IMG/VR virus record: IMGVR_UViG_3300009176_000003
Coordinates: 4,834 to 68,833 of that record
Source: a virus
Length of the DNA stretch: 64,000 nt
Strand: one strand, 5' to 3'
Position numbers and translations under genes: made by a program. Positions 1,533 to 63,708 of this stretch are shown here, in pieces (position 1 is the first letter of the stretch; every line of letters begins with the position of its first letter). The notes beneath the pieces are model-generated. The model ran no database searches and was not told the DNA's origin. It worked only from the letters and a program-made list of their open reading frames with translations.

Positions 1533-2111
1533 TTACCCCGCTGAAATCGTCAGGACGCCGCCGTTGCTCCACACCTGGCCCGCGACGTGCGGGTCGGATG
1601 CGGGCGGCACGAAGATGCTACGGCTGGAGCCGGTCGGACCGGTACCCCCGGCGACAGAGGCTGCGCCTACCGCGCCGCGCGGACCTTGAGCCCCGGCACG
1701 CCCGGTCGCGCCAGTCATGTTGGTCCCGGTCGGGCCGGTGGCTGCGCGGATCGGTCCTGCGGGCCCGGGTGGCCCGGTGTTCGCACCGGTCGCCGCGATG
1801 GGTCCGGTCGGGCCGGTTGGTCCTGCCAGACCGCCGAAGCCCGCCGTCCCTTGCGCCCCCGTCGGTCCAGTCGGGCCAGCCGACCCGGTCGGACCATAGG
1901 CACCACGAATGGTGCCGCCAGGCAATCCCGTCGGGCCAGTCGCCGCGATAGGTCCGGTCGGGCCGGTGGCCGAGCCGTAGGCCCCGGCCGGGCCGGTCGG
2001 GCCGGTGACGCCTGTTACCGTGGCGGCATTGACCGCATCGGCGAGTTCTTTCAGCGTCGGAGTGACCGCGTTGGGGTCGTAGTTCTGGGAAACGAGAGCC
2101 GTGCGCGCCAT
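1533..2111 (-). CDS. Collagen-like (Gly-X-Thr) virion fibre protein 2
   Basis: GPT repeats; C-terminus [23 protein letters not shown]; paralog of both neighbours. Confidence 0.85.
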
Positions 2112-2117
2112 GATGAA

Positions 2118-2675
2118 TTACCCCGCAGAGATGGTCGGCACGCCGTTATTGTTCCACACACGTCCCGAGACGTGGGGGTCCGACGTCGGCGCAATGAAAA
2201 GACTGACCACGGTGCCGGTCGGGCCCGTGGGCCCGGTCGCGCCCAGCGCTGCCGGCGGCCCCTGCAGACCGGTGATGCCAGCCGGACCCGTGGGTCCGGT
2301 CGGGCTCGCGCCCAGAGGCCCAGTCGCGCCGGTTGCCGCCCCGGTCGGTCCGGTGGGCCCGAGAATGCCCTGGGCGGTACCGGCCGGGCCGGCCGGACCG
2401 GCAGAGCCTGCCTGACCGGCAAGACCCGTGGGTCCGGTGGGTCCTGTCACGCCTGCAGCGCCCTGCGGTCCGAACCCGCCCATCGGGCCGGTGTTCAGGC
2501 CCGTGGCTCCAGTTGGACCAGTCATGCTCGCGCCGCGCGGTCCAGGCGCACCGGTCGCGCCGCCGGCTGGACCGGTCGGGCCGGTGACGCCTGCCGCAGC
2601 GATCCCCGCGGTGACTTCCTCCAGCACCGGGCCGACTTTGTTCGCGTCGTAATTGGTCGAAGACAGAATGGGCAT
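2118..2675 (-). CDS. Collagen-like (Gly-X-Thr) virion fibre protein 1
   Basis: GPT repeats; C-terminus [23 protein letters not shown]. Confidence 0.85.
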
Positions 2676-2724
2676 GGCGTAACCCTTGTGACGGCGCGCG
2701 TGTTACGTGCTTACACTGCGAGTG

Positions 2725-2740
2725 GTTGATCTTTCCTTAA
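2725..2740 (-). promoter_or_regulatory. CtrA-box-like site upstream of the collagen operon
   Basis: Minus strand TTAA-GGAAAGA-TCAAC, one mismatch to TTAA-N7-TTAAC; intergenic. Confidence 0.5.
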
Positions 2741-2744
2741 GTGG

Positions 2745-5129
2745 TCATCCGACCCCGGGAGAAAGTCGCGGCGTCGCGCCCGGACCGGGGCCGCGCGGCT
2801 GGTTTCCTACCAAGTGCGTCTGCGGTCCCATTCCCCCTGTGGGGGGTCCCCTGCGGGTGCCCTGGCCGTAGGCGGCCATCTGCGCCACATTGCCCTGCCC
2901 GCCCGGCTTGCCGCCCTGCGGTTGTGCCCCAAACGGGCCTTTTCCCGGCCCCGGCACCACCCCGCCGTCGCGGTCGTTGCGCATCGGGCCGCCGCCCGGA
3001 GGGGGGCCCTCTCCGGGCGCACCATCCGGGCCGACGTCCTGTTGCTGATCCAACCCGACCTGCGGACCGATTCCCAGTGCGGTAAGTTCCGAAGTGATCT
3101 TCTGCACGCCCTGGCCGACGCCCTTCTGGACGCCCTGCTCGATCTGCTCCAGCACCGGGCCGTGCTCGCGTTGCTTGGCTTCCTGCTTCTCCATCGCGTC
3201 GAGCTTCTCCTCGCTCGGCACGACTTCCTCGCCGTTCAGGCCAATCGTGGTGGCGATGGATCGCAACACCGCGCCACGCCCGGTGATCCCCATGATCTTC
3301 ATGTCAGTCGGGTTGAGCGTGGTTTGCAAAAACTCGAGTTGCCGCTGTCTTATTGTCTCGCGCTGGATCGCGACGTTCACGCCCAGCACCGTGATGTCCT
3401 CGGCACCAGTTAACAGGCCAGTCGTGTCGGTGAGCAGGATCAGGTCGGACAACTGTAAAAGCGCGGGCTCGATGACCTCGCGGTCGATGTTGGAAGAGAC
3501 CGTTTGAAGTATCTTGCTGGCGTTGCCCATCAGCATCGCGAGACCACTCGCGGTGCGTCCCGCGCCGCCGCTCGCGCCCTGCCCGCCGACGTATTTGGGT
3601 ATGGCGCTGACGTCGTCGGAGATGTCCACGAACTCCTTGTAGACCTTCATCAGGGCCTCGGAGTTCGAGGTCGGCATGAAGAATGAAATGGGAGGCTGCG
3701 CGTTCACCCCCACCGGGTCGTTGCGCGAGTGCCAGCGCTTCCACGGGTAAAGCTGATTGTCGTCGTCCGGTGTGATCCGGTCGTCGTTGATCATGACCTG
3801 GGGGCCGGACGAGATGGAGAGGTTGTTGACGAGACTGCGCAGCGTCGCATTGGCGGCCTGCTGGATGTCCTGCAACAAGTCGATCAAGGAGTTTCCTACC
3901 GGGGTGCCGGGGACTTTCTCGAACGAGGTGATAAAATAAGGATGCCGTTTGCGCGGAGACGGACTCAGATGGCATTTGATGACATGAGTGCCGATACACC
4001 AAACCTGTACGGCATAGTCCCGCAACTCGTCCGGTACCGCCAGTCCGTATTCCTGCAACATCCGCCCCTGGATGTTGCCGTTGTACTCCATCATCGCGAT
4101 CATGCCGGACCGGTTCCAGGCGGGGTTCTCCCGGCTTTCCAGAACTGCACGTTCGGCGTCGGTGGTGTCCCAATTATCGTAAAGTCCGCCTCGGCCATAT
4201 TCGTCGAGCACTGCCCGTATCTCGTCCTGATTGTAGCCGGGCAAATCGAGAAGATCGTTAAGTTCACCACGAGTGACCGAGAGTTTTTCGATCACCTCGG
4301 CATTCTCGATGTCGGCGACGCCGGGAGTGAACCAGATGTCGAACGGCGAGACCCGGTTCCAGGTCAGCTTGGGGGTCATCTTGATGTCGGGCTTGCCCCC
4401 GCCGGCGGGCCAGTCCACCTCGGGGACGACCTTGACCACCGGCCCCTTCATCACCGCAAATGGGAATATTGGGAGATCGACTAGGAACTCGGCCATGGCG
4501 TGATAGAACCCGCCGTCCCGGAGCAGCTCCTCAATGCGGTCCTCGCTGATGCGCGCCTGCTTGGTGGCCTTGCGCTTGGCCGCATCGGAGGCGCTCTCGA
4601 TCAGCGCGTCCTTGCGGTCCTGGATATCTTGCGTCTGCGGCGGCCGGCCCAGGGTCTGCGCCACCTGCTGTTGTTCCGCCTGCAAGAGTTGCTCAATCGA
4701 CTGGATGATCTCGTCCGGCACGTCCGGGTCGGCCGGGGGACGCACCGCATAGGGGCGGTCCTGCGAGAGATAGATATCGCGTAAGAGAGAAGACGCCGCG
4801 CGGCATTTCTGGGCCGCGATCCTGGCGTAGATGTTCGACCCGCCAAACTTCTGGATCTCCTGGATCTGCGTGGCGTCGTACTGGCCGTTGAAAGTACGCA
4901 TCGCCTGCAGGAGCCGCTCGCTCCAGCCGTTCACCGTGTTGCGGTGGTTACGAAAGATCTCAAAACGGGTCTTGATGAAACCAGCCAGCTGGCTCGGGTC
5001 CTGGTCGGCTTGCGGCATGTTGGAATTGGCGGCCTCGCTCTCGCGTGCCGCGATCTGCCGCTCCAGCTCGGCCGGCGGCACGACCTGGAGAACGCCCTGC
5101 TGGCCCAGACTTCCCGCCGTATCGACCAT
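2745..5129 (-). CDS. Portal (head-tail connector) protein
   Basis: 794 aa next to terminase; podoviral portal-like segments RVSPFDIWFTP, LLQDIQQAANATLRSLVNNLSISSGPQV and GAGRTASGLAMLMGNASK. Confidence 0.88.
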   Translation of the reverse strand: MVDTAGSLGQQGVLQVVPPAELERQIAARESEAANSNMPQADQDPSQLAGFIKTRFEIFRNHRNTVNGWSERLLQAMRTFNGQYDATQIQEIQKFGGSNIYARIAAQKCRAASSLLRDIYLSQDRPYAVRPPADPDVPDEIIQSIEQLLQAEQQQVAQTLGRPPQTQDIQDRKDALIESASDAAKRKATKQARISEDRIEELLRDGGFYHAMAEFLVDLPIFPFAVMKGPVVKVVPEVDWPAGGGKPDIKMTPKLTWNRVSPFDIWFTPGVADIENAEVIEKLSVTRGELNDLLDLPGYNQDEIRAVLDEYGRGGLYDNWDTTDAERAVLESRENPAWNRSGMIAMMEYNGNIQGRMLQEYGLAVPDELRDYAVQVWCIGTHVIKCHLSPSPRKRHPYFITSFEKVPGTPVGNSLIDLLQDIQQAANATLRSLVNNLSISSGPQVMINDDRITPDDDNQLYPWKRWHSRNDPVGVNAQPPISFFMPTSNSEALMKVYKEFVDISDDVSAIPKYVGGQGASGGAGRTASGLAMLMGNASKILQTVSSNIDREVIEPALLQLSDLILLTDTTGLLTGAEDITVLGVNVAIQRETIRQRQLEFLQTTLNPTDMKIMGITGRGAVLRSIATTIGLNGEEVVPSEEKLDAMEKQEAKQREHGPVLEQIEQGVQKGVGQGVQKITSELTALGIGPQVGLDQQQDVGPDGAPGEGPPPGGGPMRNDRDGGVVPGPGKGPFGAQPQGGKPGGQGNVAQMAAYGQGTRRGPPTGGMGPQTHLVGNQPRGPGPGATPRLSPGVG

Positions 5130-5192: not shown

Positions 5193-5807
5193 ATGAACGA
5201 CGATTATGTCGAGACCGGCCTGGTCCCCCGGACCGTTACCGCCACGGCAACACCCATTGCAGCGGATCATCGCTCGACCCAGCCCGCTGTGATCGCGCCC
5301 GCGCCGCCAGCAACTCCCCCCACGGCGCGGGCGATGCCTATGCCGGACGGCTGGACCCTGCACAAGGTCGCCGCGCTGGTCGGCGACGTGGCGCAGAACA
5401 TGTACGAGATGCCGTACATCCTGAAGAAGCACGAGCTGACCAAGGAGCAATACGCCACGCTGGAGAACAACGAGTTCTTCCAGAAGGCGCTGGAAGCCGA
5501 GATCATTACCTGGCAGGGCGCGAATTCCATTCAAAAGCGCCTGATGCTGGAGGCCGCCATCGGGGCCGAGGCGGCGATGCCGACGCTGGCGGCGCGGATG
5601 CAGAGCAAGACCGAGCCTTTGGGCGACATTGTTGCCCTGATGAAGTTGTTCAGCGAGATGGCCGGGGTCACCGGCGTGAAGGCCGCCGGCGGGCCGAGTT
5701 CGTTCGGCGAGCGCTTCAAGATCGTCATCAACCTGGGCAGCGACTCCCTGCAGAAAGAGGCTTCTCCCAGCGTCGACCCCAAGATCATCGAGCACAGTCC
5801 CGCATGA
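5193..5807 (+). CDS. terS: Putative terminase small subunit
   Basis: ATGA overlap with terL; helical 204-aa protein with C-terminal FKIVINL strand. Confidence 0.65.
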   Translation: MNDDYVETGLVPRTVTATATPIAADHRSTQPAVIAPAPPATPPTARAMPMPDGWTLHKVAALVGDVAQNMYEMPYILKKHELTKEQYATLENNEFFQKALEAEIITWQGANSIQKRLMLEAAIGAEAAMPTLAARMQSKTEPLGDIVALMKLFSEMAGVTGVKAAGGPSSFGERFKIVINLGSDSLQKEASPSVDPKIIEHSPA

Positions 5808-7275: not shown

Positions 7276-7743
7276 TTATTTCTTCTTTTTCTTCTTGGTC
7301 TTCGGCTTGTCGGGCTCGTCCGACTCGTCCTCGTCGCTGTCGTCGTACTCGTACTCGTCCTCGTTCTCCTCGGCTTCCGCCATAGCCGGCGCATGCTCCG
7401 GCGTTACCGCGGCGGCAACAGGCTTTGCGGCGGGCTCCTGCTCAAGCAGCTCGGCATCGCCCGGTTCGAGCGCAGCCCCGGCACGCGCGCGTGCCTGCGC
7501 CGCAGCCCTGGGCTCGTCCTCCGGCGCAACAGGAATTTTCGAGCCGCGCAGGGTATCGCGCGGGTCCGGCGGCGGCATGTTGCTGTCGTCGTGGTGCTGC
7601 ACCGGGATGAAGCTGTCGACATGCGCGAAGGCGGGCTGGTTTTGCGGCTGCACTCCCGGGTCGGCCGCCTGGGTCGGGAAGGGCTCGTCGGGCCGGTTCG
7701 AGCCGGAGCCGGGCAGCGGCTCTGGAGTCGGGTGCTTGGTCAT
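7276..7743 (-). CDS. Hypothetical Pro-rich/acidic protein with poly-Lys tail
   Basis: RBS AAGGAGG before ATG; 155 aa. Confidence 0.7.
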   Translation of the reverse strand: MTKHPTPEPLPGSGSNRPDEPFPTQAADPGVQPQNQPAFAHVDSFIPVQHHDDSNMPPPDPRDTLRGSKIPVAPEDEPRAAAQARARAGAALEPGDAELLEQEPAAKPVAAAVTPEHAPAMAEAEENEDEYEYDDSDEDESDEPDKPKTKKKKKK

Positions 7744-7771: not shown

Positions 7772-10700
7772 TCACAGCCCCCACTTGTTCTTGAGATAGG
7801 TGTCGAGCGCGGCGACGGTGGTGGCATCGCTGTAGCCGGTGGCGATGCCACACTCAGCAATTGGCCCAGCAAACTGACTTGCCAATCCCGGGTCGTTACC
7901 GATCCGCAGAGTGCCTGCGTCGGACCAATTGCCACCGGATGCAGCAGTCCCCGCCGAGACGCCATCAACATAAACCGTAAAAGTCCCGTCAGACTTGATC
8001 GTTGCAATCAGCCGGTGCGGCGCAGGATAGGCCGTCGTCGTTGCCACAGCTGTCGTGCTGTTACGATAAAGAACACATTGTGTTGACGACGTGCCATTCT
8101 GGGCAAATAGCCAACTGGTCGGACTGCCGTAGTCAACACCCCCGCTGCCACCAAGATAGGAAAAATAGCGGCCATAATTTTGTGTCCCCGTTGCACCCAT
8201 TGTGGTGACCAGCCACAAGGTCAAGGTGTTGCCACTGCTCATTGGAAAGCTTGTCGCTTTCAACACATTGACCCCAGCAGAAGAAAACACCAGGGCAGGC
8301 TTGGTCGAATTAAACCCGGTTGCATTGTAAGTTGGTTTGGCGCTCTCCCAGTTCATGGTGTTGCCAAGGCCGCTCTGATCGGCCACGCTATTGATGCTCG
8401 ATCCGGTCAAATTCAGGCTTGCCGTCACGCTCGCATCCCACCAACCAACCAATCCGGTAAGGGCCGTGGGGGACCACACATACGCCGCAACCGTCACCTT
8501 GGGATCGACATAGTACGTGGCACTCGCCTTCCCGACCCGCACCCGCGCGTGGATATAGCCGGGGAGCTGCGGCGTGATGGTGCTGGCGAGCTTGAAGGGG
8601 AGCCAACCGGCACTCGGACTACTGGTTTTATACGGATGACCGCCCGGCAGACTTGCGACCAGACCCCACTTCCACGCAAGGTAGCCCTCTAGCTTCTGCC
8701 GGTTGAGGGTCGTCGGCTTGTTCTGTAGGATAATCACCTCACCGAACTCACCCCCGTGAAACCAAGTGGAGACAGCATCGCTAGCGAAGTAACTAGTGGT
8801 GGCACGACCAGCCACAGTATTTGAGCCAGTCGTAAACTTGTCAGTACCATCCATGGCGTGACCCCAATCACTAGGGGCCGACCAAAGCATTACCTGATGC
8901 CAAATATTGACAGCAACCGCGCCCGCCGTTTTACGGCTATTAGACAAAAAATCAGAATATACCGTGCCGCCAAAAGTGTAATGGTTGTTCTGTGTGTCGC
9001 TACCCATGTCGCAGATGCCGCCAGTATCGCCACTCACACCCTTGTTGACCGCAAAGAACGATCCAGACGTGAGCGCAGACGCCGAGGCGAAGGTCGCGTA
9101 TTTGACACCGCCTGCAAAATCCAACGCCTTCAGACTATTCTGTGCATTGGTCTTGGCTGTCGGCGAGTTAGCTGTTGTCAGCGTGCGGCTGTTGCCTGAG
9201 CTGTCGGTCACCGTCGCCACCGCAACGCCGTTGGCTTCCGACATGGCATCGAACTTCCACCACGCCCATAAATCCGCGCCAAGATCGGCCGGTGACCATG
9301 GTGCTGGCGTAGCCCACACCGAACTGTCGCTCGCCACCGCCGCATTGCTCGCAAGCACGTTCGACTTGGTCGTGGTGACGATGGTGCCCTTGGGGTCGGT
9401 CGATGTCCCGAGGTACTCCGTCTCCAGCCAGATGTCGTCGTTGTTGGGCAGCGCGCCCGCGTTGACCGTGCCACATACCGTGGCGGTAACCGCGCTCCCC
9501 ACGGTCGAATTCCATATCGCCATCGGCTCCGACTTGAAGGGGCGCAGCCACTCGGCGTTGGCGCTGGTGACGATCTTGCGCGCCTGCGCCTGCCCGTTCG
9601 GGTCGACGGCACCGCCGGTGCGGACGATGGAGGTTTCCGTCGTCTCGGTCCCCTCGTAGGCGACCCGCGTCGACTTGTAGGCGGTTGCGGCCGAGTCGGA
9701 GCGGATCAACTGCACGTTCATGCCGGAGTTGATCGGGGTCGTGATGGTCATGGCGGCGTTGAGCTTGCAGTCCTGCACGATCAGCGAGCCGATGGAAGAG
9801 TTGCTGGCGTTGGTGAACAGCGAACCGGTGAGCTGCGAGAGGTCGAGGTTGCGCAACACGAACTCGTTGAACCGACCAGAAGAATTAGACTGCTGCAACA
9901 GGGTCGTGGGAACAGATGATCCAGACGCAAGTATTTGTCCGGTATTTTGCCAAATGAAGCGACAAAAATAGGGGAGAATGTATCCGGTAGTACCCCCAAA
10001 TTTAACCGTCGTGTTGTTAAAAGTTACAATACCCCAAGCCGTGCTGGTTGCTCCCATGATAAGCTGCCCAATCCCAGCCAACCAGAAAGAGCAGTTGTCG
10101 AAGCAATACCAGTTCTGGACTTGACCTACTGCAGAAGCCCCGATGAACACCCCGGCCGAAGTCGTGCTGAAAGTAATACCGTAAAAATAAAACGACCCTT
10201 GCGAGGAAAACGTGATCGAGCTGCCGGGCGTAATTGACGCTCCGGTCATGATGTTGCTGTCTGTGGGCGGATAACTGCCTGAATGATTGTGACAGAGCAC
10301 CTTGGCCAGAAGCGCACTGGCAAGGCTGATGTTGATCGTCCCGGAACCGGTTTCTGCGTGGTTGTCCCCAACGTACACTGTGTTGCCGGACGTAAACCAG
10401 GTCGAGGTGAACACACTTTGCAGCCGCGCGTGGGGGGCCTGTCCTCCGGTGAAATTACCCACCACCCCCAGCGAACGCCACGTTGCCGTCCCGCCGCTCT
10501 CGGCCGTCGATGTCCCAGCCGTATCACTGAACGCGGGTTCTGCGGCTCCCAGTGTCCCCGCCGTCGTGCAACACTGATAACTCGATCCGCTGTTGGTCTT
10601 GATGATCACACCCAATGACGGCGTCCCCACTGCCTTCATTTGTGCCCAACTGAACGTATTGGCAGCATCGCCATTGACCGACGACATGCCGGTGCATTCC

Positions 10701-10951
10701 GACCACGTCGCGGTGCCATCAGTAACTTGCGCCCCGCGCGTGATGGTCCAGGTCGCATCAGTGGTGTTGGCGGTGGTCCCGGCGGTCCGGCAGACAAACA
10801 CCCGCTCGTTGCCCACACTCGGCGCAGTGAATTGCCTGCACAATTGCCCGGCCGCAACCGCCGCGTTCTGCGGACGCTTGGCCACCGCGTAATACCCGGT
10901 GGTGCTCCCGTCGCCGAAGTTGCAGTACCAAACGACATCGAAGAAGGCCAT
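7772..10951 (-). CDS. Tail fibre / receptor-binding protein with two LamG/ConA-like domains
   Basis: 1059 aa; WSPADLGADLWAWW...GEFGEVII...RQKLEGYLAWKWGL and WSPTALTGLVGWWDAS...LDTYLKNKWGL; paralog of 10953-13337. Confidence 0.75.
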   Translation of the reverse strand: MAFFDVVWYCNFGDGSTTGYYAVAKRPQNAAVAAGQLCRQFTAPSVGNERVFVCRTAGTTANTTDATWTITRGAQVTDGTATWSECTGMSSVNGDAANTFSWAQMKAVGTPSLGVIIKTNSGSSYQCCTTAGTLGAAEPAFSDTAGTSTAESGGTATWRSLGVVGNFTGGQAPHARLQSVFTSTWFTSGNTVYVGDNHAETGSGTINISLASALLAKVLCHNHSGSYPPTDSNIMTGASITPGSSITFSSQGSFYFYGITFSTTSAGVFIGASAVGQVQNWYCFDNCSFWLAGIGQLIMGATSTAWGIVTFNNTTVKFGGTTGYILPYFCRFIWQNTGQILASGSSVPTTLLQQSNSSGRFNEFVLRNLDLSQLTGSLFTNASNSSIGSLIVQDCKLNAAMTITTPINSGMNVQLIRSDSAATAYKSTRVAYEGTETTETSIVRTGGAVDPNGQAQARKIVTSANAEWLRPFKSEPMAIWNSTVGSAVTATVCGTVNAGALPNNDDIWLETEYLGTSTDPKGTIVTTTKSNVLASNAAVASDSSVWATPAPWSPADLGADLWAWWKFDAMSEANGVAVATVTDSSGNSRTLTTANSPTAKTNAQNSLKALDFAGGVKYATFASASALTSGSFFAVNKGVSGDTGGICDMGSDTQNNHYTFGGTVYSDFLSNSRKTAGAVAVNIWHQVMLWSAPSDWGHAMDGTDKFTTGSNTVAGRATTSYFASDAVSTWFHGGEFGEVIILQNKPTTLNRQKLEGYLAWKWGLVASLPGGHPYKTSSPSAGWLPFKLASTITPQLPGYIHARVRVGKASATYYVDPKVTVAAYVWSPTALTGLVGWWDASVTASLNLTGSSINSVADQSGLGNTMNWESAKPTYNATGFNSTKPALVFSSAGVNVLKATSFPMSSGNTLTLWLVTTMGATGTQNYGRYFSYLGGSGGVDYGSPTSWLFAQNGTSSTQCVLYRNSTTAVATTTAYPAPHRLIATIKSDGTFTVYVDGVSAGTAASGGNWSDAGTLRIGNDPGLASQFAGPIAECGIATGYSDATTVAALDTYLKNKWGL

Positions 10952-13337: not shown

Positions 13338-13604
13338 TTAGTAGTTCTCATGCGGCAGCAGCAGCGTGTAAGTCGAGGCGACCGAGCCGGTCACCAGCAG
13401 GTTGATCGCGTGCGCGGTCTCGCCGATCACCGGCGCGGGCGGCCCGGTGACCGCCGGCGCAGACAGGTAATTCACGTAGATCAGCTGGTGCGATACCGCG
13501 GCGGTAACGGCACCGCCAAGTTCTTTACCGACGTCGTCGGCCCACCAGGTGACGCCGTTCTCGTCGAAGAAACTGGTTCGCGCGAGGTCGTCCTCCAGGG
13601 CCAT
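13338..13604 (-). CDS. Hypothetical protein (tail module)
   Basis: 88 aa; tiles exactly between tail genes. Confidence 0.65.
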   Translation of the reverse strand: MALEDDLARTSFFDENGVTWWADDVGKELGGAVTAAVSHQLIYVNYLSAPAVTGPPAPVIGETAHAINLLVTGSVASTYTLLLPHENY

Positions 13605-20068: not shown

Positions 20069-20075
20069 TGCAGAC

Positions 20076-20171
20076 ATGTCAGGCACGGAAATAATCATCA
20101 TCGCCATTGCAGTCGTCTGGGCGCAGCTGTTCGTGCTCGCCTGGGCCATGTTCACGCCCGACCAGGACTAA
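20076..20171 (+). CDS. Small membrane peptide (31 aa)
   Basis: MSGTEIIIIAIAVVWAQLFVLAWAMFTPDQD. Confidence 0.45.
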   Translation: MSGTEIIIIAIAVVWAQLFVLAWAMFTPDQD

Positions 20172-20277
20172 CCCTCACGCACGCTGGCAGGGTGGCACGC
20201 TGTCACCCTGCCATTCACACGTCCCAACAGCAAAACGCATCCACAGGGCTCCCTGCCCCAACCAGAAAGGCCACCCA

Positions 20278-21085: not shown

Positions 21086-21086
21086 C

Positions 21087-39311: not shown

Positions 39312-39325
39312 AGGAGGGTTTAACA

Positions 39326-51205: not shown

Positions 51206-51421
51206 TTAGTGGAATCGAAAGTTGCCGATGCTTCCGGTCATCACGACCGTCAGCAGGGCAATCAGCGCCAGCAGCAAGACCACCACCCAGACGCCCTTCT
51301 TGATCTGCTCGGGGATCGGCATGACGAACTGCTCGATCACGTAGATCGCCAGCCAGATGACCCCGCACAGGATGATCAGCCCGATCAGGAACCACAAAAC
51401 GCCGATTGCCATCGAGAGCAT
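51206..51421 (-). CDS. Two-TM small membrane protein (holin candidate)
   Basis: RBS AAGGAGG; two hydrophobic helices. Confidence 0.65.
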   Translation of the reverse strand: MLSMAIGVLWFLIGLIILCGVIWLAIYVIEQFVMPIPEQIKKGVWVVVLLLALIALLTVVMTGSIGNFRFH

Positions 51422-51434
51422 GGGGGCCTCCTTG

Positions 51435-53591: not shown

Positions 53592-53646
53592 GAAAAATCC
53601 GCCTCAGCAGTCTATGTGACCGTGGCGGTAACATGCCCCCAATCCG

Positions 53647-55098: not shown

Positions 55099-55542
55099 CT
55101 AGCCGTTCTCTTCCGAGCCCGCCTGCACGCCGCGTCCCGCGTTGGCGTCCTGCCAGACCCAGTTCGCGCCGGTCTTCTGGTCGTGCATGGTCAGCGCCTT
55201 GACCCGGTCGTCGATCACCCACTGCTCTTTGTCTTTGGGATTCTCCACTTTGATCTTCTGGCGCACGATGCTCATTTGCGTGAAGCGCAGCCTGCCGACC
55301 TCCTTGCTGGCGGCAACCCGGACCTGGCTGGGCTTCACGCCGCTCGACGGCCGCAAGATATCGTTGCGTAAATTCCGGTCGAACTCCTGCTGCTGGCGCG
55401 TCGGCGAGAGGTTCTCGTTGGTAATGCGAATAACATCGGCCAGCGTGGCGTTAGGTGGAATGGGTCGCAACCCCACCGGCGACTGCGGGCCGGGCGGCGG
55501 CGCGAAGACCGTCACATTGCAGAAAGGCGCTGATGCCGCCAC
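55099..55542 (-). CDS. Hypothetical tail-module protein
   Basis: RBS AGGAGG, GTG start. Confidence 0.7.
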   Translation of the reverse strand: MAASAPFCNVTVFAPPPGPQSPVGLRPIPPNATLADVIRITNENLSPTRQQQEFDRNLRNDILRPSSGVKPSQVRVAASKEVGRLRFTQMSIVRQKIKVENPKDKEQWVIDDRVKALTMHDQKTGANWVWQDANAGRGVQAGSEENG

Positions 55543-55554
55543 GGTAACCTCCTG

Positions 55555-58366
55555 TTAAATCTGTCCGAGGTCTTTCACCGACGTGCCAATTTGCACGTCG
55601 CTGATCTGCACCCGCGCCTCGATCTGCCAGATCCAGTTGTCCGCCTTGAAGCCATCGACGATACGCAGCACTTCGCCCGGCTTGCGGATCTCGCGGCAGT
55701 CCATCAGCCGGTAGGTGCCGTTACCGTTGGTGTCGGCGTAGGTCTTGATGTAGCCGTAACGGTCCTCCGGCAACTCGTCCCACGCGGGATCGTCGGCGTC
55801 TTCCTCCAGGCGCTCTTCGTTCTGCACAGGTGTGTTCGGCGGCACCGAGAAGAACACTTTCATCGCCGAGTAATTCCGCTTGGCGTTCTGCTGGTACTCT
55901 TTTGACCGCCAGACGTAGGACTTCAGTGCCGGCGCGGGATCGCTGAAGTCGAAATAATACACACCCCCATTGGCCACGACGATGCCGATGCCGGTCCACG
56001 GGTCGGTCTGCACGTTCTGGATGTTGATATCCAGCGGGCTGTCGAGGATCTGCAAACCCAGCCTGTGCCCGCCGGGGTGTGGCCAGATCGAGAACCCAAG
56101 ATTGTCCTGGTCGAGTTCAATCGTGAACCCCTGCTGCGCCACGCTGGTGTCGAGTCCGTCGCGCGAGGTGGTCCCCAGGCAGTAGTAGCAGGACTCCAGA
56201 AGGATCGCGCGGGTGTGCTTCTGCGGCACGAGTTGCTGCCAGCGCTCGCGCGTGATCCACTTGTCGCTGGTGTTGCTGGCGCTGCCGTTGCCCGAGACAA
56301 AAATCAGCCCGTTCGGGCTCATGTAGGCGACGTGATTGTCGCCGCCGAGAATGCTGGCGCGCGAGATGCACGGCTGCACCGCCGCGCACTTCACCTGGGT
56401 CATCTGGCTGGGAACAACACCGTTGATCACGTAGGGTGCGGCAGCGGTGCACACGACCAGCGAGCCACCGGTCAGTCCCAACCCGACCACCGGGAAGTCC
56501 ACGGTCAGCACATAGCCGGGCGGCCACGCATGAGGCCGGTACGGCTCGCAGAACCAGACTTCATTTCCGATGAAAGAAGCCAGCATGCCGTTCTGCATCA
56601 CGGTCAGGCCCTGCAGGTTCGCCGGCGGGGGAAACCAGTTGGTGCTGGCCATCACGTCGTTGAGCGCCACGGTGTCGTTGGGGATCTCGTCGACAAAACT
56701 CGCGGTGCCGATGACGAACTCCTCGACGAAGAAGAACGCCGCGCCGCCGCCGACGTCCGGCACGGTGCGATAAAGCCTTAGTTTTTTCAGGTTGCGGTGC
56801 ACCCCCATGTCGTTGGGTGGCGGCTGCCACAGCCCCACCGTCCAGACGCCGTTCGACCACCCGGTGAGCAACACCGGCGGAGAAGGCGGTCCCTCCTCGT
56901 TGTACTCGGTCACCCAGGTGTAGACGTAGGAGCGCGACTCCAAGACGTCAGACGTAATCAAGTCCGCCCACATGTTCAGTGCCGCGCCGGTCGAGCCCAT
57001 GCCGAAGGCGTTGGCCGGGGGACCGTTGGTAAACGTCGTATGAAACGCGACGTGCACGCCTTGTCCCGCGTCCCAGTCGGCCGGGCCGCCCATCACGCCG
57101 ACACTGGTGTCGAACATGATGCCGACCCAGTAATCCGTGTCGCTGCTGAGATTTGTCGGGTTCACAAACGAGCTGACGTTGGCGATGTCGGTGACCACGC
57201 CCGCGGTGATACTCCCGGTGTTGAGCAAGGTGCCGGGCTGGCCGGCTTCGTCGGCGTAGAGCACGGCGGCAAAATACGACGCCGGGTAACCATTCGCCGG
57301 GTCGTTCGGCATGGTGTTGAACTTGACGTCCTGGATTTGCGTCGTGCCGGGAGAAGTTATTTTGGTCAAGTAGACGTGGTTGGCCAGGACATCGACCTTG
57401 ACGCCGTCTTGGGTGAGGTTGCCAAGTTTCAGGCTGTTACCGCCACCGGTAACATCGGCCGTAGGAGCGCACCCGGGAGGCGGCACACCGAGTAAGTATG
57501 GCGGCATCCCGCCCACGATACGATTGTACGTATTGTACGACGGCATCTGGCTGGGACTGGCAAAGTAATAGCGGTCGTACATATCGTCGACCACGGGCGA
57601 CTTGACGACATTCGTGTCCGGGTCGTTGAACTCCAGCCATGCGGCAGCCCCCGTAATGGTGTTGTCGAACGTCGGGTTGGTGCCGCCCAAAAACGTGCTG
57701 GTTACGTGCGAGAAGTCCACCGTGTCGTAGAGCCACTTCATGCGCTCGGTGTTGGTGCTCTCCTGCACGACGATCAGGTTGAACGACGCACCGAAGTCTT
57801 CTGCACCGACTTCGAGGAACGTGCCCACCAGGTCTTGTCCGGTGTCGGGGGCGTGCAGACCTAAAATAGGCTCGGTGTCGGGCAGGAAGAACTTCACCGC
57901 GCCGTTGAACGGCGTGGAAGTGCCGTATTGAATTCCTGCGTTGGTGTTCTCGCCGCTGTCGGCGGTGAGCGCGTGGCCGAGATTCGTGGCCGACGCCATC
58001 ACGTCTGCGCCAATGAGAACCTCGAACGGCTGGCCCACGATGGCATCGTCGGGGTTGGCCGTCAGCACCAAGGTGGTGCGGAACGTGTAGACGTGATCGC
58101 CGACGGTGACCGTGTCGCCGTCACGCGGCAGGTCGAGAAACACCAGATAGGCGCGGGCCTGGGTCTTGGAGACCACAGGCACGCGGTAGACCATGCGCGC
58201 CGCCGAGTTGGTCAGCGCGCGGAGTAATTTCGGCTTGCGCCAGCCGATCAGCTCGCCGGAAAACAGGAAGCCGTTTTCAGCGTAAGATGCTTGACCGGTT
58301 GGCAGAAGTGCCGGACTCCAAGCTGGCAACATCCCGCCGAAACTGTTCGAGTTGCAGGCTAGGCAC
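55555..58366 (-). CDS. Tail tubular/stabilisation-like protein (5' end frameshifted, or start at 58332)
   Basis: FGGMLP...SRSYVYTWVTEYNEEGPPSP...NEVWFCEPYRPHAWP...YMSPNGL...YVWRSKEY. Confidence 0.75.
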
Positions 58367-58883
58367 AACTCACCCCCTTCTCTTCCACATACTTGGCAAG
58401 ACGCCGCAGACGATGTGGATCGTCTTCGCACATACCCAATGCCGTGTTGCAGTACTGACAAAGAATCCCACGCAAAGCGCCTGTGTCGTGACAATGGTCA
58501 ACAGCCCACCCATTCTTAGATCTTGGGTCAGTGGAGCTGCACCCCGCACAACACAAACCTTGGGCAGCAAACATCGCTTCCCATTCCTGTCTAGTTAGTC
58601 CGTATGCGCATTTGATTTTAGACCATTTGTTATGCGCTTTTTGTTTGTCCGGATTAGCAAGCCGCCACGCTTGATGGTACGCGTTACGTTTTTCTTTTTG
58701 CTCTGGCGATAAACTTTTATAGTAGCTAGCAGCCGCTGCTCTCCCCTCCACCGTCTGGTATCTCCTCCGTTTGTATTCAGTCTCTTTCATTCTGTTTTCA
58801 GGATTAAGTCGCCAGCGCTTCCGTGCCGCATGCTGGTTCGCACGTCCACGCTCTGTTAGATGATACGTGCGAACCGCTGGCAT
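58359..58883 (-). CDS. Endonuclease VII-type homing endonuclease
   Basis: YGLT...QGLCCAGC...AVDHCHDTGALRGILCQYCNTALG; lower GC. Confidence 0.9.
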   Translation of the reverse strand: MPAVRTYHLTERGRANQHAARKRWRLNPENRMKETEYKRRRYQTVEGRAAAASYYKSLSPEQKEKRNAYHQAWRLANPDKQKAHNKWSKIKCAYGLTRQEWEAMFAAQGLCCAGCSSTDPRSKNGWAVDHCHDTGALRGILCQYCNTALGMCEDDPHRLRRLAKYVEEKGVSCA

Positions 58884-58891: not shown

Positions 58892-59350
58892 CTACTCCTT
58901 CAGCGGGGCACTCGTCGCCTTGATGTTGCCCTGGCCCTTGGCCTGGTCAGGCACGTAATCCGGCGGGCGGAACACCTCGACCGAGCCCTTGTCGGCCCAC
59001 TTGTCGCGCTTGTGGCGCTCGTGCGCCTCCTGCCGCTCGATCTCCTGGGAGGCGAACTCCATCACGCGTCTCGCGCCAACCTCCATCTCCAGCTTGGTCT
59101 GCTCGACCATTGCCGGCGGCAGTGACGGAGGGGGTGGCGTTACCGCCACGGCAGCCGGCGCACGCGCCTCCACGATGGCCTGCACGAAGTCGTGCTCGCG
59201 ATTGAGATCCTGCGCCTCGTCATAGATCTTCGCCTCCTCCCTGGAACGGGTCGGATCGAAGGCTTTTTCGTCGGAATCGTCGGTCGTCGGGCTTGTCGTA
59301 TCCGAGTGCGCCTTGCTGCTGTGCCGGGACGACTGCGGGGTCTTGCTCAT
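58892..59350 (-). CDS. Hypothetical protein
   Basis: RBS AAGGAG; 152 aa. Confidence 0.65.
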   Translation of the reverse strand: MSKTPQSSRHSSKAHSDTTSPTTDDSDEKAFDPTRSREEAKIYDEAQDLNREHDFVQAIVEARAPAAVAVTPPPPSLPPAMVEQTKLEMEVGARRVMEFASQEIERQEAHERHKRDKWADKGSVEVFRPPDYVPDQAKGQGNIKATSAPLKE

Positions 59351-59518: not shown

Positions 59519-61210
59519 TCATGCGGTCATCACCAGGTATACCTTCAGCCCCTTGGCGGTGCCGTCGCCAACCTGGTCAATGTCGACCGACATCTCGGCA
59601 TCGAGCGCCAGGGACGTGTCCGAGATCACCGGCGCGGTCGCCGCCGTCGTCGAAGTCTTCTCGGTGTTGTCGATGGTGATCTTGGTCGAGAGCACGCTGG
59701 TGCCGGCCTCGTTGATGTCGACCGTGAAAATGCTCCCCGAGGTCTGCGCGGTAGTGAGCGAGGCGCGCACGCCGGTCAGCGTCATGGCGAACGGCATGCG
59801 GAAAGTGGTTTTACCGGTGCCGGCGGTCAGCGCGGTGGTCTCGTCCGAGCAGGCCACGATCAGCGTCGAGTCGGTGAACGCCGCACCGGTTGGCCCGATG
59901 CGCCCGGTCGGGCCGGTCACCGTGGAGGGCGTGCCCGGCACGCCCGGCGGACCCGCGCCGCCGGTCGGGCCTGTTACCGTGGAGGCAGCGCCGGTCGCGC
60001 CTAAACCAGTCGGGCCGGTAGTCCCGGCAGGCCCGGTCGGACCGGTGCCGCCGGTCCCCGCCAAGCCCGTCGGGCCTGTGGCTCCAGTGCTCACCGCCGT
60101 GCCGGGGATACCCGTCGGGCCGATCACGCCGGTCGGGCCGGTGCGGCCCGTCGCGCCGGTCGCGCCTAACCCAGTCGGGCCTGTGGCTCCGGTACGGGTG
60201 TTGGTGCCGTCTGCGCCCGGCCGCCCGGTCGGTCCGGTCAAGCCGGCAGGCCCAAGCGGTCCGGTTGGCCCGGTGCGCCCGGTTGCGCCAGTGGTCGAGG
60301 CGGTACCCGCCGGACCGGTAAAGCCAGTCGGGCCGATGGGTCCGGTACGGCCTGTGGCACCGGTCACGCCGGTGCCCGCCGGCCCGGTGTTGCCCGTCAC
60401 GCCGGTGATCCCGGTCGGGCCGGTTATGCCCTGCGCACCGGTCGGACCTTGTATCCCCTGCGCCCCGGTGACCCCCGGAGGGCCGGTCGCGCCAGTGGCG
60501 GCAGCCGCACCCGGCGTGCCGCCGGGACCCTGCAGACCTATCGGCCCAGTCGGGCCGGTGCTGCCAGTCGATCCGGTTCCGGCCGCGGTCCCGGCCGCAC
60601 CAGTCGAGCCGGTCATACCAGTCGGGCCGGTCAGGCCCTGGGAACCCGTTGCGCCCGTGCTGGCGAGCCCGGTCGGACCCGTGGCACCGGTCATGCCGGT
60701 GTTGCCGACCCCAACAGGTCCCGTATCGCCGGTGAACCCGGTCGGGCCGATTAGCCCTTGCAGCCCGGCCGGACCCAGGGGACCGGTTGCGCCGGTTGCG
60801 CCGGTCGTCGAGGCAAAACCGGGCGGGCCGGTCATGCCGGTCGGGCCAGGCGGACCAATAATGAGCGGATTACTGGGGGGCTCGGTGACCATCACCGGAG
60901 CGTCGACCTGGAACACGATTGTGTAATTCCAGCGCTGCTGGTCGTTGGTCAGAACGAGAAGTGCGAGGGTGAACGTCTCGCCAAGCGACCCCGACGTGAC
61001 CAGCAGGTAGCAACCGGTCTGGTCGTTGACCAGGTCGCACGGGTCGACCACCGTGCTGACGTTGCTGGTCACCGAGGCACGCGCCTCGATAAGATTAACC
61101 CCCGGCTCCAGCAAGCTATCGAACGACACCAGGAAGCGCTCGGTGTCGCCGGCCGAAAGATGCTGCTCGCCCAGATAGCTCGCGGTCGAAGCGACTTCGA
61201 TCTCGATCAT
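59519..61210 (-). CDS. Collagen-like tail fibre with N-terminal adaptor domain
   Basis: About 330 aa of GXT repeats; C-terminal [13 protein letters not shown]...FRMPFAMTL...[15 protein letters not shown]. Confidence 0.85.
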
Positions 61211-61530
61211 TCACGCGCCCCCACGACGTAGTGGACGGTGTAGTTCAGCTCCTGGCCGTCATTGGTGGTGACCGCGAAGTTCACGTCGAACGTGGTGGGG
61301 TCGTCGGTCGACTCGACGTACCAAAAGACTGATCTACGGTCGTTGGCGAGCTGCAGCCGGTTGACGATGGCGTCGTCGTCGATGACTTCGGTGTCGATGC
61401 TCATCCCGGTAAGCAGCACTCCCGGTTCGAGAAAATAACCAAAGTCCGCCTGGTAGCGCTCGACGTTGCTCGCAGTGAGACGGACCGCACCCAGGTCCCC
61501 GTCGCTGTCGGCAATCTCGAACACGTGCAC
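61207..61530 (-). CDS. Fibre-adaptor-like protein, paralog of the N-terminus of 59519-61210
   Basis: GTG start; [15 protein letters not shown]...[11 protein letters not shown] vs [15 protein letters not shown]...[11 protein letters not shown]. Confidence 0.65.
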
Positions 61531-61538
61531 CCGTACAC

Positions 61539-62129
61539 CTATGCCTTGGTCCCGACCGCCATCCACATCACGTCGACCGGCCCGGTGTTGACGGAGAGGT
61601 TGAACCCGATGGTCGAGCGCGAGATCACCAGCGGGAAAGTCCCGGTCGGGCCGCTGTGCCCGACGGTCACCACCGGCGGGATCAGGAACGTGGCCGGAAA
61701 ACCCACGCCTCCGCCCGGCGGCAGCGACGAAGTGAGCCCCCACGCCAGCATGATGTTGTTGAGCGCGAAGTAACCGGTCGGCCCGACACCGGTCGCGCCG
61801 GTGAACGTCATGGGGACAGACCCGGTCGGACCGCTGGCCCCGGTCATGCCGGTCGGCCCGGTCACCCCGGTCGCACCGGTGTTGCCGGTCATGGCGAACC
61901 CAGCCGCGCCGGTGTACCCGGTCGGGCCAATGGGTCCAGTCGATCCCGGCACGCTCGATGCCAAGCCCGCCTCACCCGTTTGACCACGCATCCCGGTCGG
62001 GCCGGTCACACCGGTCGGACCAAACGGGCCCGTCGAACCAGACGGACCGCCAAACGGCCCAGTCGGGCCGCCCACCACCACGACAGGACGGGCAAAAACC
62101 TGTGCCGGACCGAGAATGTCTATCGGCAT
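61539..62129 (-). CDS. Short collagen-like fibre protein
   Basis: GXT repeats; C-terminal IMLAWG...FPATF..PPVVT...MWMAVG fibre-tip motif. Confidence 0.8.
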
Positions 62130-62515: not shown

Positions 62516-63160
62516 TCAGAACCTCGTCGGGTAGGCGGTGCTGACCCCGCCGCGCTGGGAGTTGTTGCGCCAGCCGCGCGGGTAGGACCAGTTCTGCGCG
62601 CCCTTGAGGTTGGCGCGCTCGGCCGCGACTTTCGCCAGCTGGATGCCCGTGCGAAACCGCTTCAGGTGATAGGCCGCCATGGTGTTGTTGGAGTAGGTTT
62701 TCTGCTGTTGCCCCATCATCTTGCCGACCAGGCCGTCGAGAATGTGGATGCTGTAGACGCGCAGCGTCCAGTCCGGCGCGACCGGAAGAGCATCCCTGGT
62801 GATCGGCAGCGTTACTGTCTTGGTAACACGAGCAAAGAAGTTCGCCGGAGAGTCACTCTGCGGCGGCCAGCGCAGGATCAAGGTGGCGAAATCCGGCATG
62901 TAGGACTCCACCGGAGAGAGGTTGCCGTCCCACACGCCGTTGAGGCGTATGATCTGGCCGTCCTGCGCGGGCGCAAGCAGGTACTCGGTCTGGTTGGCCA
63001 CCGGCAGGAAGGGAATGTCTTCTTGCCAGCAAGAACTATCCTCGAAGAACTCCTTGAGAACGTCATACAGCTCGGCCTTGATGCCGGCTTCACTCGCGCC
63101 GGTCAGCTTGATCTGCGCTTGGGCGAGAAGCTGCTGGGTCTCGCGCGGGTCGAGCGCCAT
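62516..63160 (-). CDS. Head-tail adaptor / tail tubular A-like protein
   Basis: 214 aa; EFFEDSSCWQE; two genes downstream of capsid. Confidence 0.6.
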   Translation of the reverse strand: MALDPRETQQLLAQAQIKLTGASEAGIKAELYDVLKEFFEDSSCWQEDIPFLPVANQTEYLLAPAQDGQIIRLNGVWDGNLSPVESYMPDFATLILRWPPQSDSPANFFARVTKTVTLPITRDALPVAPDWTLRVYSIHILDGLVGKMMGQQQKTYSNNTMAAYHLKRFRTGIQLAKVAAERANLKGAQNWSYPRGWRNNSQRGGVSTAYPTRF

Positions 63161-63595
63161 TTATTCGCCTCCCGCCGGCGGACCCGACCCGCGTGGCTTG
63201 CTGCGCGGTGCCGGCGTGCCGCCTTCGACGGGAACGGAAGGCCGCTGCCCGGTCAGCATGTTGATGTAGTTCAGGATGAACGTGTTGGCGCGTGAGTCCT
63301 GCACGTCCTCCTCGTCCCTGAGTAAAGCGTGCCCGGCAATGCCGTACTCGATAGGTAGCCGGAAAGACGGCTCAACCGGGATAACCGCGCCGCTGATCTC
63401 TTCGTACTGCGGCACTTCGATGCCGTAACGACTGATGAACAGGTCCGGACGTAACCGCCTGGCGTCGTTGAGCGTGATGTTAAGCGCTGCGATGAGGGAA
63501 GTATCGCCGTAGCGGTAGGGGCGAATCTTGTCGAGCAGGAGGTTGCGCACCCCTTTGATCATCTGCTCGACAGTCATCAGGTTGGGTGGCGGCAT
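63161..63595 (-). CDS. Head-tail adaptor protein
   Basis: VRNLLLD..PYRY...RRLRPDLF; first gene after capsid. Confidence 0.6.
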   Translation of the reverse strand: MPPPNLMTVEQMIKGVRNLLLDKIRPYRYGDTSLIAALNITLNDARRLRPDLFISRYGIEVPQYEEISGAVIPVEPSFRLPIEYGIAGHALLRDEEDVQDSRANTFILNYINMLTGQRPSVPVEGGTPAPRSKPRGSGPPAGGE

Positions 63596-63633
63596 AATGC
63601 TCCCTCGCTGCCGCGCAGAGTAGCGGGGAGGGC

Positions 63634-63650
63634 GTTAAGAGACCGCTAAC
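63634..63650. promoter_or_regulatory. CtrA-box-like site upstream of the adaptor/tail operon
   Basis: GTTAA-GAGACCG-CTAAC; on the - strand followed by GCTACTCT (-10-like). Confidence 0.5.
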
Positions 63651-63655
63651 GGCGC

Positions 63656-63690
63656 AGAAGGAAGCCGCCGCGGTGGGTGACCGCGGCGGT
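63656..63690 (-). terminator. Terminator-like hairpin after the major capsid gene
   Basis: Minus strand ACCGCCGCGGT-CACCC-ACCGCGGCGGC-TTCCTTCT. Confidence 0.55.
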
Positions 63691-63708
63691 AACGCGTTGG
63701 TTATGCGA

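Follow-up and report, generated by a model that had tools for sequence, protein, structure and literature searches.

Why a phage should carry the same 17-bp near-palindrome about once per 2 kb, in every module of its genome and mostly inside genes, is the question raised by IMG/VR record IMGVR_UViG_3300009176_000003, a 68,833-bp genome (GC 63%) that has a 123-bp direct terminal repeat and is rated complete. The window analysed here is the 64,000-nucleotide stretch covering positions 4834-68833 of this record, and all feature coordinates are given as window positions. The phage is uncultured and related to the cultured Rhizobium phage RHph_TM27A. The copies of its palindrome, GTTACCG-N3-CGGTAAC, are real, are under selection as DNA and co-occur in related phages with a cassette of five genes. 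We favour, at somewhat less than an even chance, the reading that they are putative sites on duplex DNA at which a dimeric, two-fold symmetric protein or complex encoded by the phage docks. Dispersed dyad repeats as such are already in print, and what is new here is the co-inherited gene cassette together with a cultured model.

A repeated palindrome under selection at the DNA level

Within the window, no exact match to GTTACCGNNNCGGTAAC was found; at up to two mismatches there are 29 matches, compared to a mean of 0.19 and a maximum of 2 in 100 dinucleotide-preserving shuffles. Over the whole record, GTTACCG-N3-CGGTAAC is present at 19 sites with one mismatch, 12 with two and 8 with three, and the form with a four-nucleotide spacer (N4) at three perfect sites, one with two mismatches and four with three. 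Spacers of 0-2 and 5-8 nucleotides (seven tested) gave one site in total at up to two mismatches and 2-6 sites each at three mismatches, and about half of the three-mismatch copies are therefore noise. The confident copies thus number 35 (31 N3 and 4 N4) in 68.7 kb, found in every module. In a de novo scan for near-palindromes, GTTACCG-N3 was the top family, with 31 sites in 31 separate 1-kb bins. The earlier note, made from the letters alone, had described such a repeat across the whole genome and mostly within genes, which was borne out, down to the positions of all nine copies that it gave as examples.

The closest cultured kin are the near-identical Rhizobium phages RHph_TM27A, TM27B, TM29 and TM3_14A (portal identity 57.5%), and the HMO-2011-type phages of Roseobacter, Pelagibacter and Puniceispirillum are far more remote (22-26% identity). 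A portal-alignment scan of IMG/VR identified 185 relatives, from which the 14 complete ones were taken. In RHph_TM27A (60.9 kb), GTTACCT-N4-AGGTAAC and its N3 form together number about 60 copies, and five of the 14 uncultured relatives have a genome-wide TTAC-type palindrome (16-22 copies at up to two mismatches) with arms spelled GTTACCG, TTTACCG or GTTACAG. The other nine showed background only, with 1-5 loose matches per genome, and a de novo scan revealed no other convincing palindrome family in them. Across all phages considered, the N3 arms are spelled GTTACCG, TTTACCG, CTTACCG, GTTACAG, TTTACTG or CTTACGG and the N4 arms GTTACCT, GTTACCC, ATTACCT or GTTACTT, with TTAC as the invariant core (345 pooled sites from 25 genomes or loci). 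In the 690 arms of these sites, departures from the consensus amount to 2 at arm position 5 (C), 20-32 at each of positions 2-4 (TTA) and 260 at position 1.

Conservation at orthologous positions, which the earlier note had suggested checking, was found for some copies: they occupy identical alignment columns among genomes of 40-60% protein identity, at times in another frame or with another spacer. Such copies lie in a small head-module protein in four genomes and in a 937-aa protein in four genomes, an N4 copy is common to this phage and the relative G002, and one column of the DNA polymerase holds an N3 copy in frame 1 here and an N4 copy in frame 0 in RHph_TM27A. The orthologous copies are old sites kept by DNA-level selection, and the sites as a whole form a co-evolving family. 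Searches of the open-access literature turned up no account of such repeats for this clade and no paper naming the TM27 phages, and the titles and abstracts of the HMO-2011-phage literature contained nothing on such repeats.

Evidence for selection came from recoding in silico. The phage's 78 genes were called with a home-made heuristic codon-usage caller, so gene starts are approximate. When synonymous codons were shuffled within these genes 300 times, a mean of 7.6 and a maximum of 12 sites remained, compared to 31 observed; about 6 of the 7.6 are sites not wholly in genes, which the shuffle leaves unaffected, and only about 1-2 of the 25 intragenic copies survive. By these gene calls, 18 N3 and 4 N4 intragenic copies lie in frame 0, seven in frame 1 and one in frame 2, where the motif would give a TAA stop. 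A frame 0 copy reads V-T-x-x-V-T, and in the 19 N3 sites read in this frame valine is spelled GTT in 12 of 13 cases at codon 1 and GTA in 12 of 13 at codon 5, as had been claimed, against genome-wide shares of the valine codons of 10% and 5%, respectively. At one orthologous position, moreover, the peptide YTFTATV is encoded with TTT...GTA in motif-bearing genomes and with TTC...GTC in the motif-free G006. Because copies are lost on codon shuffling, rely on rare GTT and GTA codons and are respelled as TTC/GTC in a motif-free relative, selection acts at the DNA level and not on the peptide, in agreement with the view of the earlier note. A DNA-level signal can thus limit strongly how the coding sequence of essential genes is written, and annotators should not take such words for peptide motifs or terminators.

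These results bear directly on whether the copies could be without function and have arisen as a side effect of a repeated peptide, of biased mutation or of a mobile element that spreads. Coding repeats can mimic signals, and the collagen-like genes of this phage do yield a spurious ACCGG-N5-CCGGT. The copies discussed here, however, lie in unrelated genes and on both strands, use rare codons and vanish on codon shuffling, and some are conserved at orthologous positions; we regard an origin as a by-product as hardly credible. As 17 bp is not a multiple of three, the copies cannot be in-frame insertions. Mobile elements resembling repetitive extragenic palindromes or miniature inverted-repeat transposable elements were rejected as a source, as 25 of the 31 N3 copies lie wholly within genes and are without conserved flanks.

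In this genome, the gaps between the 35 sites range from 627 to 5,691 bp and have a coefficient of variation of 0.507, compared to 0.961 ± 0.149 at random, and none of 100,000 random placements was as even. Gene boundaries and non-coding DNA are enriched 2-2.7 fold in sites in all seven motif-bearing genomes (26-46% of sites vs 13-18% expected; 45% in RHph_TM27A), and the intergenic or boundary position attributed earlier to the copies at 23995, 51434, 53616, 55532 and 63677 agrees with our own heuristic gene calls. This enrichment would suit a role of the sites at the level of transcription or RNA, be it as promoters, roadblocks, stoperator-like terminators or mRNA hairpins, as would the intergenic copy at 23995, which extends to a longer hairpin just 3' of the stop codon of the ATPase gene introduced below. 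Such a role nevertheless seems very unlikely, as 54-74% of the copies in the motif-bearing genomes are intragenic, in either gene orientation, the palindrome has no direction, and no T-tract was noticed 3' of the copies when the flanks were inspected by eye. For the repeat of the Cluster O mycobacteriophages, the authors were, in the available text of their paper, equally negative (PMC4351075). The stoperator-like roadblocks suggested in the earlier note do not fit either: the stoperators of Cluster A phages are, according to the same text, dozens of dispersed repressor-type sites, many away from promoters, that are asymmetric and oriented with transcription (PMC4351075), whereas the palindrome here is symmetric, with the perfect arm on either side regardless of gene strand. 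Stoperators furthermore belong to temperate phages, and no repressor or integrase was found here.

A gene cassette that tracks the motif

The cassette comprises five genes, all on the + strand. The first (21706-22428; the open reading frame (ORF) possibly starts at 21451) encodes an all-helical, Lys/Arg-rich protein of 240 aa, which is a candidate reader of the sites. It is followed by the gene of a MoxR/NorQ/McrB/MCM-type AAA+ ATPase (22639-23982; phrog_1297), the counterpart of the ATPase found beside N4 gp25-like genes, and by that of a small acidic protein (24051-24350) of 99 aa here and 137-193 aa in relatives. The fourth gene (24360-25925; phrog_1314; N4 gp25-like) encodes a DUF2201_N zincin-like peptidase domain and a DUF2201 VWA-like domain, and the fifth (26095-26901) a 268-aa protein without known family, present in 35 of 53 ATPase-anchored loci, which is a second candidate reader.

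When all phage proteins were compared by tblastn to 15 other genomes (RHph_TM27A and the 14 complete relatives), the ATPase and DUF2201 genes were found in seven of seven motif-bearing complete genomes and in none of the nine motif-free ones. The helical and acidic genes were found in six of the seven and again in none of the nine, and both proteins were recovered in RHph_TM27A as well by blastp clustering. The RHph_TM27A homologs of the five cassette proteins are EVB29_028 (helical), EVB29_051 (ATPase), EVB29_054 (acidic), EVB29_055 (zincin-VWA) and EVB29_056. Six of the nine motif-free relatives nonetheless have the genes for the polymerase, SNF2 protein, nuclease and primase in common with this phage. 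A second test took the ATPase as its sole query in IMG/VR and used the 51 loci so retrieved, about 43 of them new and non-duplicate. In 45 of these 51 loci, TTAC-type sites occur at 0.25-1.6 per kb, compared to 0.02-0.08 per kb in motif-free genomes, and a TTAC-type arm was the top de novo family in most of the loci. The spacer type follows the divergence of the ATPase, with N3 at identities of at least 39% and N4 at 27-33%. The N3 group keeps a fixed gene order (helical - ATPase - acidic - zincin-VWA - 268 aa - polymerase), and the ATPase and zincin-VWA genes adjoin each other in 50 of 53 loci.

The same comparisons speak to the idea that the sites recruit a host protein, such as a transcription factor or nucleoid-associated protein of a Rhizobiales-like host, with the differences in spelling reflecting different hosts. 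Domain searches have not found a phage-encoded reader, the TTAC/GTAA half-sites are reminiscent of those of OmpR/CtrA-type winged-helix proteins, and the phage itself carries a Trans_reg_C-like winged helix-turn-helix gene. In the 16 genomes, however, presence and absence of the motif fit the phage cassette exactly, the site is missing from motif-free sister phages that come from similar samples, and the phage's winged-helix gene occurs in the motif-bearing and motif-free groups alike. Recruitment of a host protein is therefore an improbable explanation in our view.

The AlphaFold2 (AF2) model of the ATPase has a predicted local distance difference test score (pLDDT) of 90.5 and gave Foldseek matches to 2r44, NorQ-NorD, McrB and MCM at E values around 1e-5, and the zincin-VWA protein matches the Pfam families DUF2201_N (1.1e-14) and DUF2201 VWA-like (4.9e-17). 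By sequence and, for the ATPase, by its AAA+ fold, the two are members of the gp24/gp25 pair of phage N4 (PHROG 1297 and 1314): these are the cassette's two central genes, the tblastn matches are annotated 'N4 gp25-like', and in LUZ7 a small gene lies between the pair too. The difference is that the pair is flanked here by two family-less genes and accompanied by the palindrome, while the N4-like phages have neither. McrB is one of the AAA+ proteins that the ATPase model resembles (Foldseek E 4.9e-5), and this raises the idea of a self-mark, in which the word would protect phage DNA from, or direct, a phage-encoded DNA-tracking AAA+ machine or nuclease that treats unmarked host or rival DNA differently. 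A dense and even spread suits a mark that is met soon from any point, and genes for a PD-(D/E)XK nuclease and a SNF2 protein lie close by. Still, NorQ, MoxR and MCM match the model equally well, none of the cassette proteins had a match in PADLOC, no nuclease is specific to the cassette, and N4-like phages carry the pair without any mark, which leaves this idea only a slim chance.

As to the candidate readers, the 240-aa protein had no match in Pfam, PHROG or the PDB; Foldseek against the PDB gave nothing at E ≤ 0.001 and a PDB profile search nothing meaningful. Its best hit in a wide structure search (Z 6.3) covers the last helical hairpin only, and in the Atlas it matches viral hypotheticals only, besides a weak DUF3102 lead at 0.86. 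The Atlas model of the 268-aa protein has a pLDDT of 0.32 and offers leads only, namely a T4 gp59-like match at 0.95 and RAG1 zinc motifs. No DNA-binding domain was found by Pfam in 20 further small phage proteins.

Two other proteins had been named earlier as possible binders, and neither proved suitable. One is a 69-aa stand-alone LuxR/GerE-type helix-turn-helix protein (25953-26162, +; Pfam GerE 8.7e-11), whose gene lies inside the cassette in this phage only. It was rejected as reader because jackhmmer found no homolog in the 15 related genomes or 51 loci while relatives share the motif. The other is encoded by a 245-aa ORF (16761-17498, -) that the gene caller missed and whose match to an OmpR/CtrA-type winged helix is weak (Trans_reg_C, 1e-4, short of the Pfam cut-off); this ORF is conserved in motif-bearing and motif-free relatives, and its protein was rejected on that ground.

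Two further observations concern the surroundings of the cassette. Upstream of the ATPase, a 60-aa gene (22425-22607, +) has a tblastn match of 8e-7 at the corresponding place in the N4-like Rhizobium phage RHph_X2_28B; on this sequence match, it is a candidate for one more small gene conserved along with the gp24/gp25 pair. The remotest ATPase contigs (L188-L191 and L195; ATPases 25-31% identical) lack the TTAC word and contain other, unverified candidate arms, e.g. CCCACTA-N4 (6 copies in 14.9 kb) and TTACTAC, which possibly represent a further diverged site family.

Duplex docking sites as the favoured reading

Whether the palindrome is read as a duplex or as a folded single strand can be judged from how its arms vary. 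Among the 345 sites, 18 compensatory arm pairs were observed compared to 23.7 expected from re-paired arms, and positions 8 and 10 favour Y and R symmetrically without requiring pairing. In the genome of this phage, 25 of the 62 N3 arms are perfect, yet in none of the 31 N3 sites are two perfect arms combined (P = 1.5e-4 if arms were paired at random), in contrast to three of the four N4 sites with their off-spacing. Perfect N3 copies are present in G003 and G011, and the avoidance is thus specific to this genome; it looks like a tuning of the sites to middling affinity. The independent arms, the Y/R preference, the affinity-like tuning and the weak single-stranded DNA (ssDNA) folds together favour two-fold duplex binding, from which we infer that a protein binds the sites.

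A competing explanation is that the sites are ssDNA hairpins or cruciforms (7-bp stem, 3-4 nt loop) read by a primase, a helicase loader or a structure-specific nuclease, as the earlier note had proposed for the primase. A variable N3/N4 loop is natural for a hairpin, the spacing of about 2 kb resembles the length of Okazaki fragments, the cassette belongs to the replication module, next to the genes for the polymerase, primase-helicase and nucleases, and the three perfect N4 copies are good ssDNA folds (-5.9 to -7.4 kcal/mol, z -2.3 to -5.5). On the other hand, compensatory changes are not in excess, and every one of the 31 N3 copies of this genome has at least one arm mismatch; a tuning of this kind would be senseless for a hairpin, because an internal mismatch would cripple it. 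The predicted ssDNA fold is barely better than shuffles for five of nine N3 sites (z > -1.3), in three of which the best fold differs from the expected hairpin, and G-T wobble variants show no strand bias by gene direction, albeit in small numbers. Hairpins are thus unlikely to be what is read. N4-type hairpin promoters have a stem of 5-7 bp and a 3-nt loop, occur in a few copies 5' of early genes and are read by a virion RNA polymerase. The size of stem and loop would suit them, but about 35 copies are present here, mostly intragenic and with weak ssDNA folds. The 1948-aa virion-module protein had no Pfam match, and no search aimed at a virion RNA polymerase was made.

If the copies are duplex docking sites, each half-site would read nTTACCGY, and selection would keep the sites at about one per 2 kb in every module, placed where coding tolerates them, i.e. 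at gene ends, in intergenic gaps and in the V-T-x-x-V-T frame. The reader would most likely be encoded in, or depend on, the replication-module cassette at 21.4-26.9 kb, with the family-less 240-aa and 268-aa proteins as candidates, and the task of assembling or remodelling the complex would fall to the MoxR-type AAA+ ATPase and the zincin-VWA protein. The identity of this binder, like the purpose of the sites, we infer from gene context. Our guess is that the sites mark the whole genome or offer loading points along it, during replication, condensation or packaging, and do not act in promoter control, which is disfavoured because the distribution is dense, extends over all modules and is mostly intragenic and so fits loading, marking or anchoring. 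As to the process, the sole clue is that the cassette neighbours replication genes.

Several points weigh against docking sites read by a cassette protein. No binder of the palindrome emerged, shown or predicted, a DNA-binding domain was not recognised in any of the five cassette proteins, and the AF2 model of the 240-aa protein is moderate only (pLDDT 71). N3 and N4 spacers are both freely used (20 and 42 sites in RHph_TM27A), which is unusual for a rigid dimer, and the reader may be flexible or bind half-sites cooperatively. The even intragenic spread that the earlier note had stressed holds for this genome, but significant evenness was found in only three of the seven motif-bearing genomes (this phage, RHph_TM27A and G013, not G002, G003, G005 and G011), and regular spacing is therefore not universal in the site family. 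The TTAC motif is missing from six of the 51 ATPase-bearing loci. Both of the two N4-like phages with the gp24/gp25 pair lack a genome-wide palindrome in a scan that does recover the repeat of Corndog as a positive control, and these phages also lack the two family-less cassette genes; the pair is therefore not sufficient, and a causal link would place the specificity in another part of the cassette. The link may also be due in part to shared ancestry, and independent gains and losses cannot be counted because the backbone of the portal tree is unresolved and the TerL tree is a quick version only. Finally, the MoxR/zincin-VWA pair has been proposed as a presumed virion-assembly chaperone of jumbo phages, and the available text mentions no link to DNA sites (PMC7824862, Iyer et al. 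2021).

Among known systems, the closest described case is, judged by its layout, the repeat of the Cluster O mycobacteriophages (Corndog and kin), so that the palindrome, which the earlier note did not recognise as a described site, does match one in architecture (7-N3-7, about 34 copies). The repeat there is a 17-bp dyad, 5'-TGTTCGG-N3-CCGAACA, with 34 copies in a 69.8-kb genome, for which the authors predict a dimeric DNA-binding protein and state that the function is not known, as far as the accessible text goes (PMC4351075, Cresawn et al. 2015). Both systems have 7-bp inverted arms and a 3-bp spacer (31 of the 35 confident copies here), and in both the copies are genome-wide, inter- and intragenic and without orientation; independence from promoters is reported there in the part of the paper available (PMC4351075). 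Our scanner found 39 copies of the Corndog repeat at up to two mismatches. The differences are the word itself (TGTTCGG vs GTTACCG), the arms, which are invariant in Corndog while every N3 copy here is imperfect, the location, mostly intergenic or near gene starts in Corndog as described in that text and wholly intragenic for 25 of 31 copies here, and the spacer, which is N3 or N4 here; no gene association is reported for Cluster O in the text available. No protein of this phage had a tblastn match below E 0.01 in Corndog. With no shared genes and a different word, the two repeats do not appear to be of common descent. Cluster O dyad repeats have been in print since 2015 without a function or a candidate reader, and the same architecture is now seen in an unrelated, large clade.

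The KorB and ParB systems (the OB operators of the IncP plasmid RK2, and parS) likewise combine a short palindrome spread over a replicon of about 60 kb with a dimeric reader and genome-wide action. Here, about three times more sites are present, most of them intragenic, and no partition genes were seen. A parS-like site, another candidate of the earlier note, gained no support: ParB_N (PF02195) had no match in this phage at E ≤ 1 in a search whose controls gave matches in 11 of 14 genomes, although a very divergent or split ParB could escape such a search.

A more specific version of the docking reading is that the palindromes are the DNA address of the MoxR-AAA+/zincin-VWA module, with the 240-aa and 268-aa proteins as adaptors that would tether the motor to tuned, sub-optimal sites every 1-2 kb. 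We hold this version to be rather doubtful. If true, it would make the module a genome-wide DNA-organising or self-marking machine and not a virion chaperone, would provide the first functional handle on this widespread module and would explain the palindrome lattices of other phages. The cultured pair of RHph_TM27A and Rhizobium phaseoli N831 and the presence/absence contrast among sister genomes make these ideas testable, and the cassette of five genes narrows the search for a reader to few proteins.

Individual copies and their genomic context

The genes recognised by Pfam/PHROG outside the cassette include an SU10-type portal (2745-5129, -), a family A DNA polymerase (27997-29970), a PD-(D/E)XK nuclease (31162-31932), a SNF2 helicase (32552-34498), a DUF927 primase-helicase (36264-39311) and collagen-like fibre genes with Gly-X-Y repeats (981-2675 and 59519-62129). 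From the left of the window, N3 copies with one mismatch occur at 5235-5251 (gene 5193-5807, +), 7403-7419 (gene 7276-7743, -) and 13492-13508 (gene 13338-13604, -), N3 copies with two mismatches at 9474-9490 (gene 7772-10951, -) and 17215-17231 (the winged-helix ORF 16761-17498, -), and an N4 copy with two mismatches at 12603-12620 (gene 10953-13337, -), all in frame 0. The N3 copy at 19887-19903 (gene 19754-20068, +, frame 1) has two mirrored complementary mismatches (C...G at the tips).

In and around the cassette, all N3 copies have one mismatch: 21635-21651 lies directly 5' of the helical 240-aa gene or in its N-terminal extension, 23995-24011 is intergenic between the ATPase and acidic-protein genes, 25129-25145 lies in the DUF2201 gene (frame 1), and 26143-26159 abuts the stop codon of the LuxR-type gene 25953-26162 (+). 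At the intergenic copy 3' of the ATPase gene, complementarity continues for about 5 bp further on each side, giving a palindrome of about 27 bp with GGGGT...ACCCC flanks (23987-24019), whose predicted DNA hairpin has a 10-bp stem and -7.4 kcal/mol; from this predicted fold, the palindrome may double as a terminator.

Further right, single-mismatch N3 copies were located in the DNA polymerase gene (29000-29016, frame 1) and, in frame 0, at 31040-31056 (gene 30881-31165, +), at 35968-35984 (gene 35170-36252, +) and in the primase-helicase gene (36963-36979). Those with two mismatches, all in frame 0, are at 27015-27031 (gene 26934-27305, +), 32040-32056 (gene 31950-32201, +), 34602-34618 (gene 34488-34706, +; weak core) and 39270-39286, close to the end of the primase-helicase gene. 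The SNF2 helicase gene holds an N4 copy with both arms perfect (33041-33058, frame 0).

The gene of the 1948-aa protein (41394-47240, -) contains four N3 copies, at 41425-41441 and 44065-44081 (one mismatch, frame 0), 44692-44708 (two mismatches, frame 0) and 46101-46117 (one mismatch, frame 1), and the adjacent gene 47247-50105 (-) an N3 copy with two mismatches (48655-48671) and an N4 copy with both arms perfect (49860-49877), both in frame 0. The N3 copy at 51434-51450 (one mismatch) spans the stop of gene 51435-53591 (-) and lies within 51206-51484 (-), that at 53616-53632 (one mismatch) is intergenic, and that at 55532-55548 (two mismatches) spans the start of gene 55099-55542 (-). The third perfect N4 copy (57436-57453; gene 55555-58368, -, frame 0) is the one orthologous to the N4 copy in G002. 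The N3 copies at 59139-59155 (gene 58892-59350, -) and 62811-62827 (gene 62516-63160, -) have two mismatches and are in frame 0, and the last, at 63677-63693, is intergenic with one mismatch.

ACCGG-N5-CCGGT was rejected as a second palindrome family, as all 11 copies lie in the collagen-like Gly-X-Y genes and are a coding artefact; an artefact of the collagen type (GACCGGT-N3) also tops naive palindrome counts in the relatives L012, L020, L022 and L040. A DNA polymerase peptide scan of IMG/VR gave no match, and megablast of 24 kb against cultured phages gave a 255-bp SNF2 stretch as sole match. In the record of RHph_TM27A, a 'putative integrase' (L005 42248-45331) and 14-bp attL/attR misc_features are annotated; the former is a homolog of the DUF927 primase-helicase of the phage studied here (28% identity over the full length), and the integrase label is therefore doubtful.

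DNA of the phage was found in three runs, as Logan contigs from rhizosphere/soil metagenomes, with no RNA run among them. No molecule ends are visible in the comparison of metagenome contigs to the phage. About 40 variant places in 20 kb were counted, with none within 13 sites compared to 0.4 expected, which are too few differences for a test of conservation. Near-identical fragments of the region 20000-39999 are present in contigs of two further rhizosphere/soil runs from other studies (X2 and X3), and the phage therefore occurs beyond one sample.

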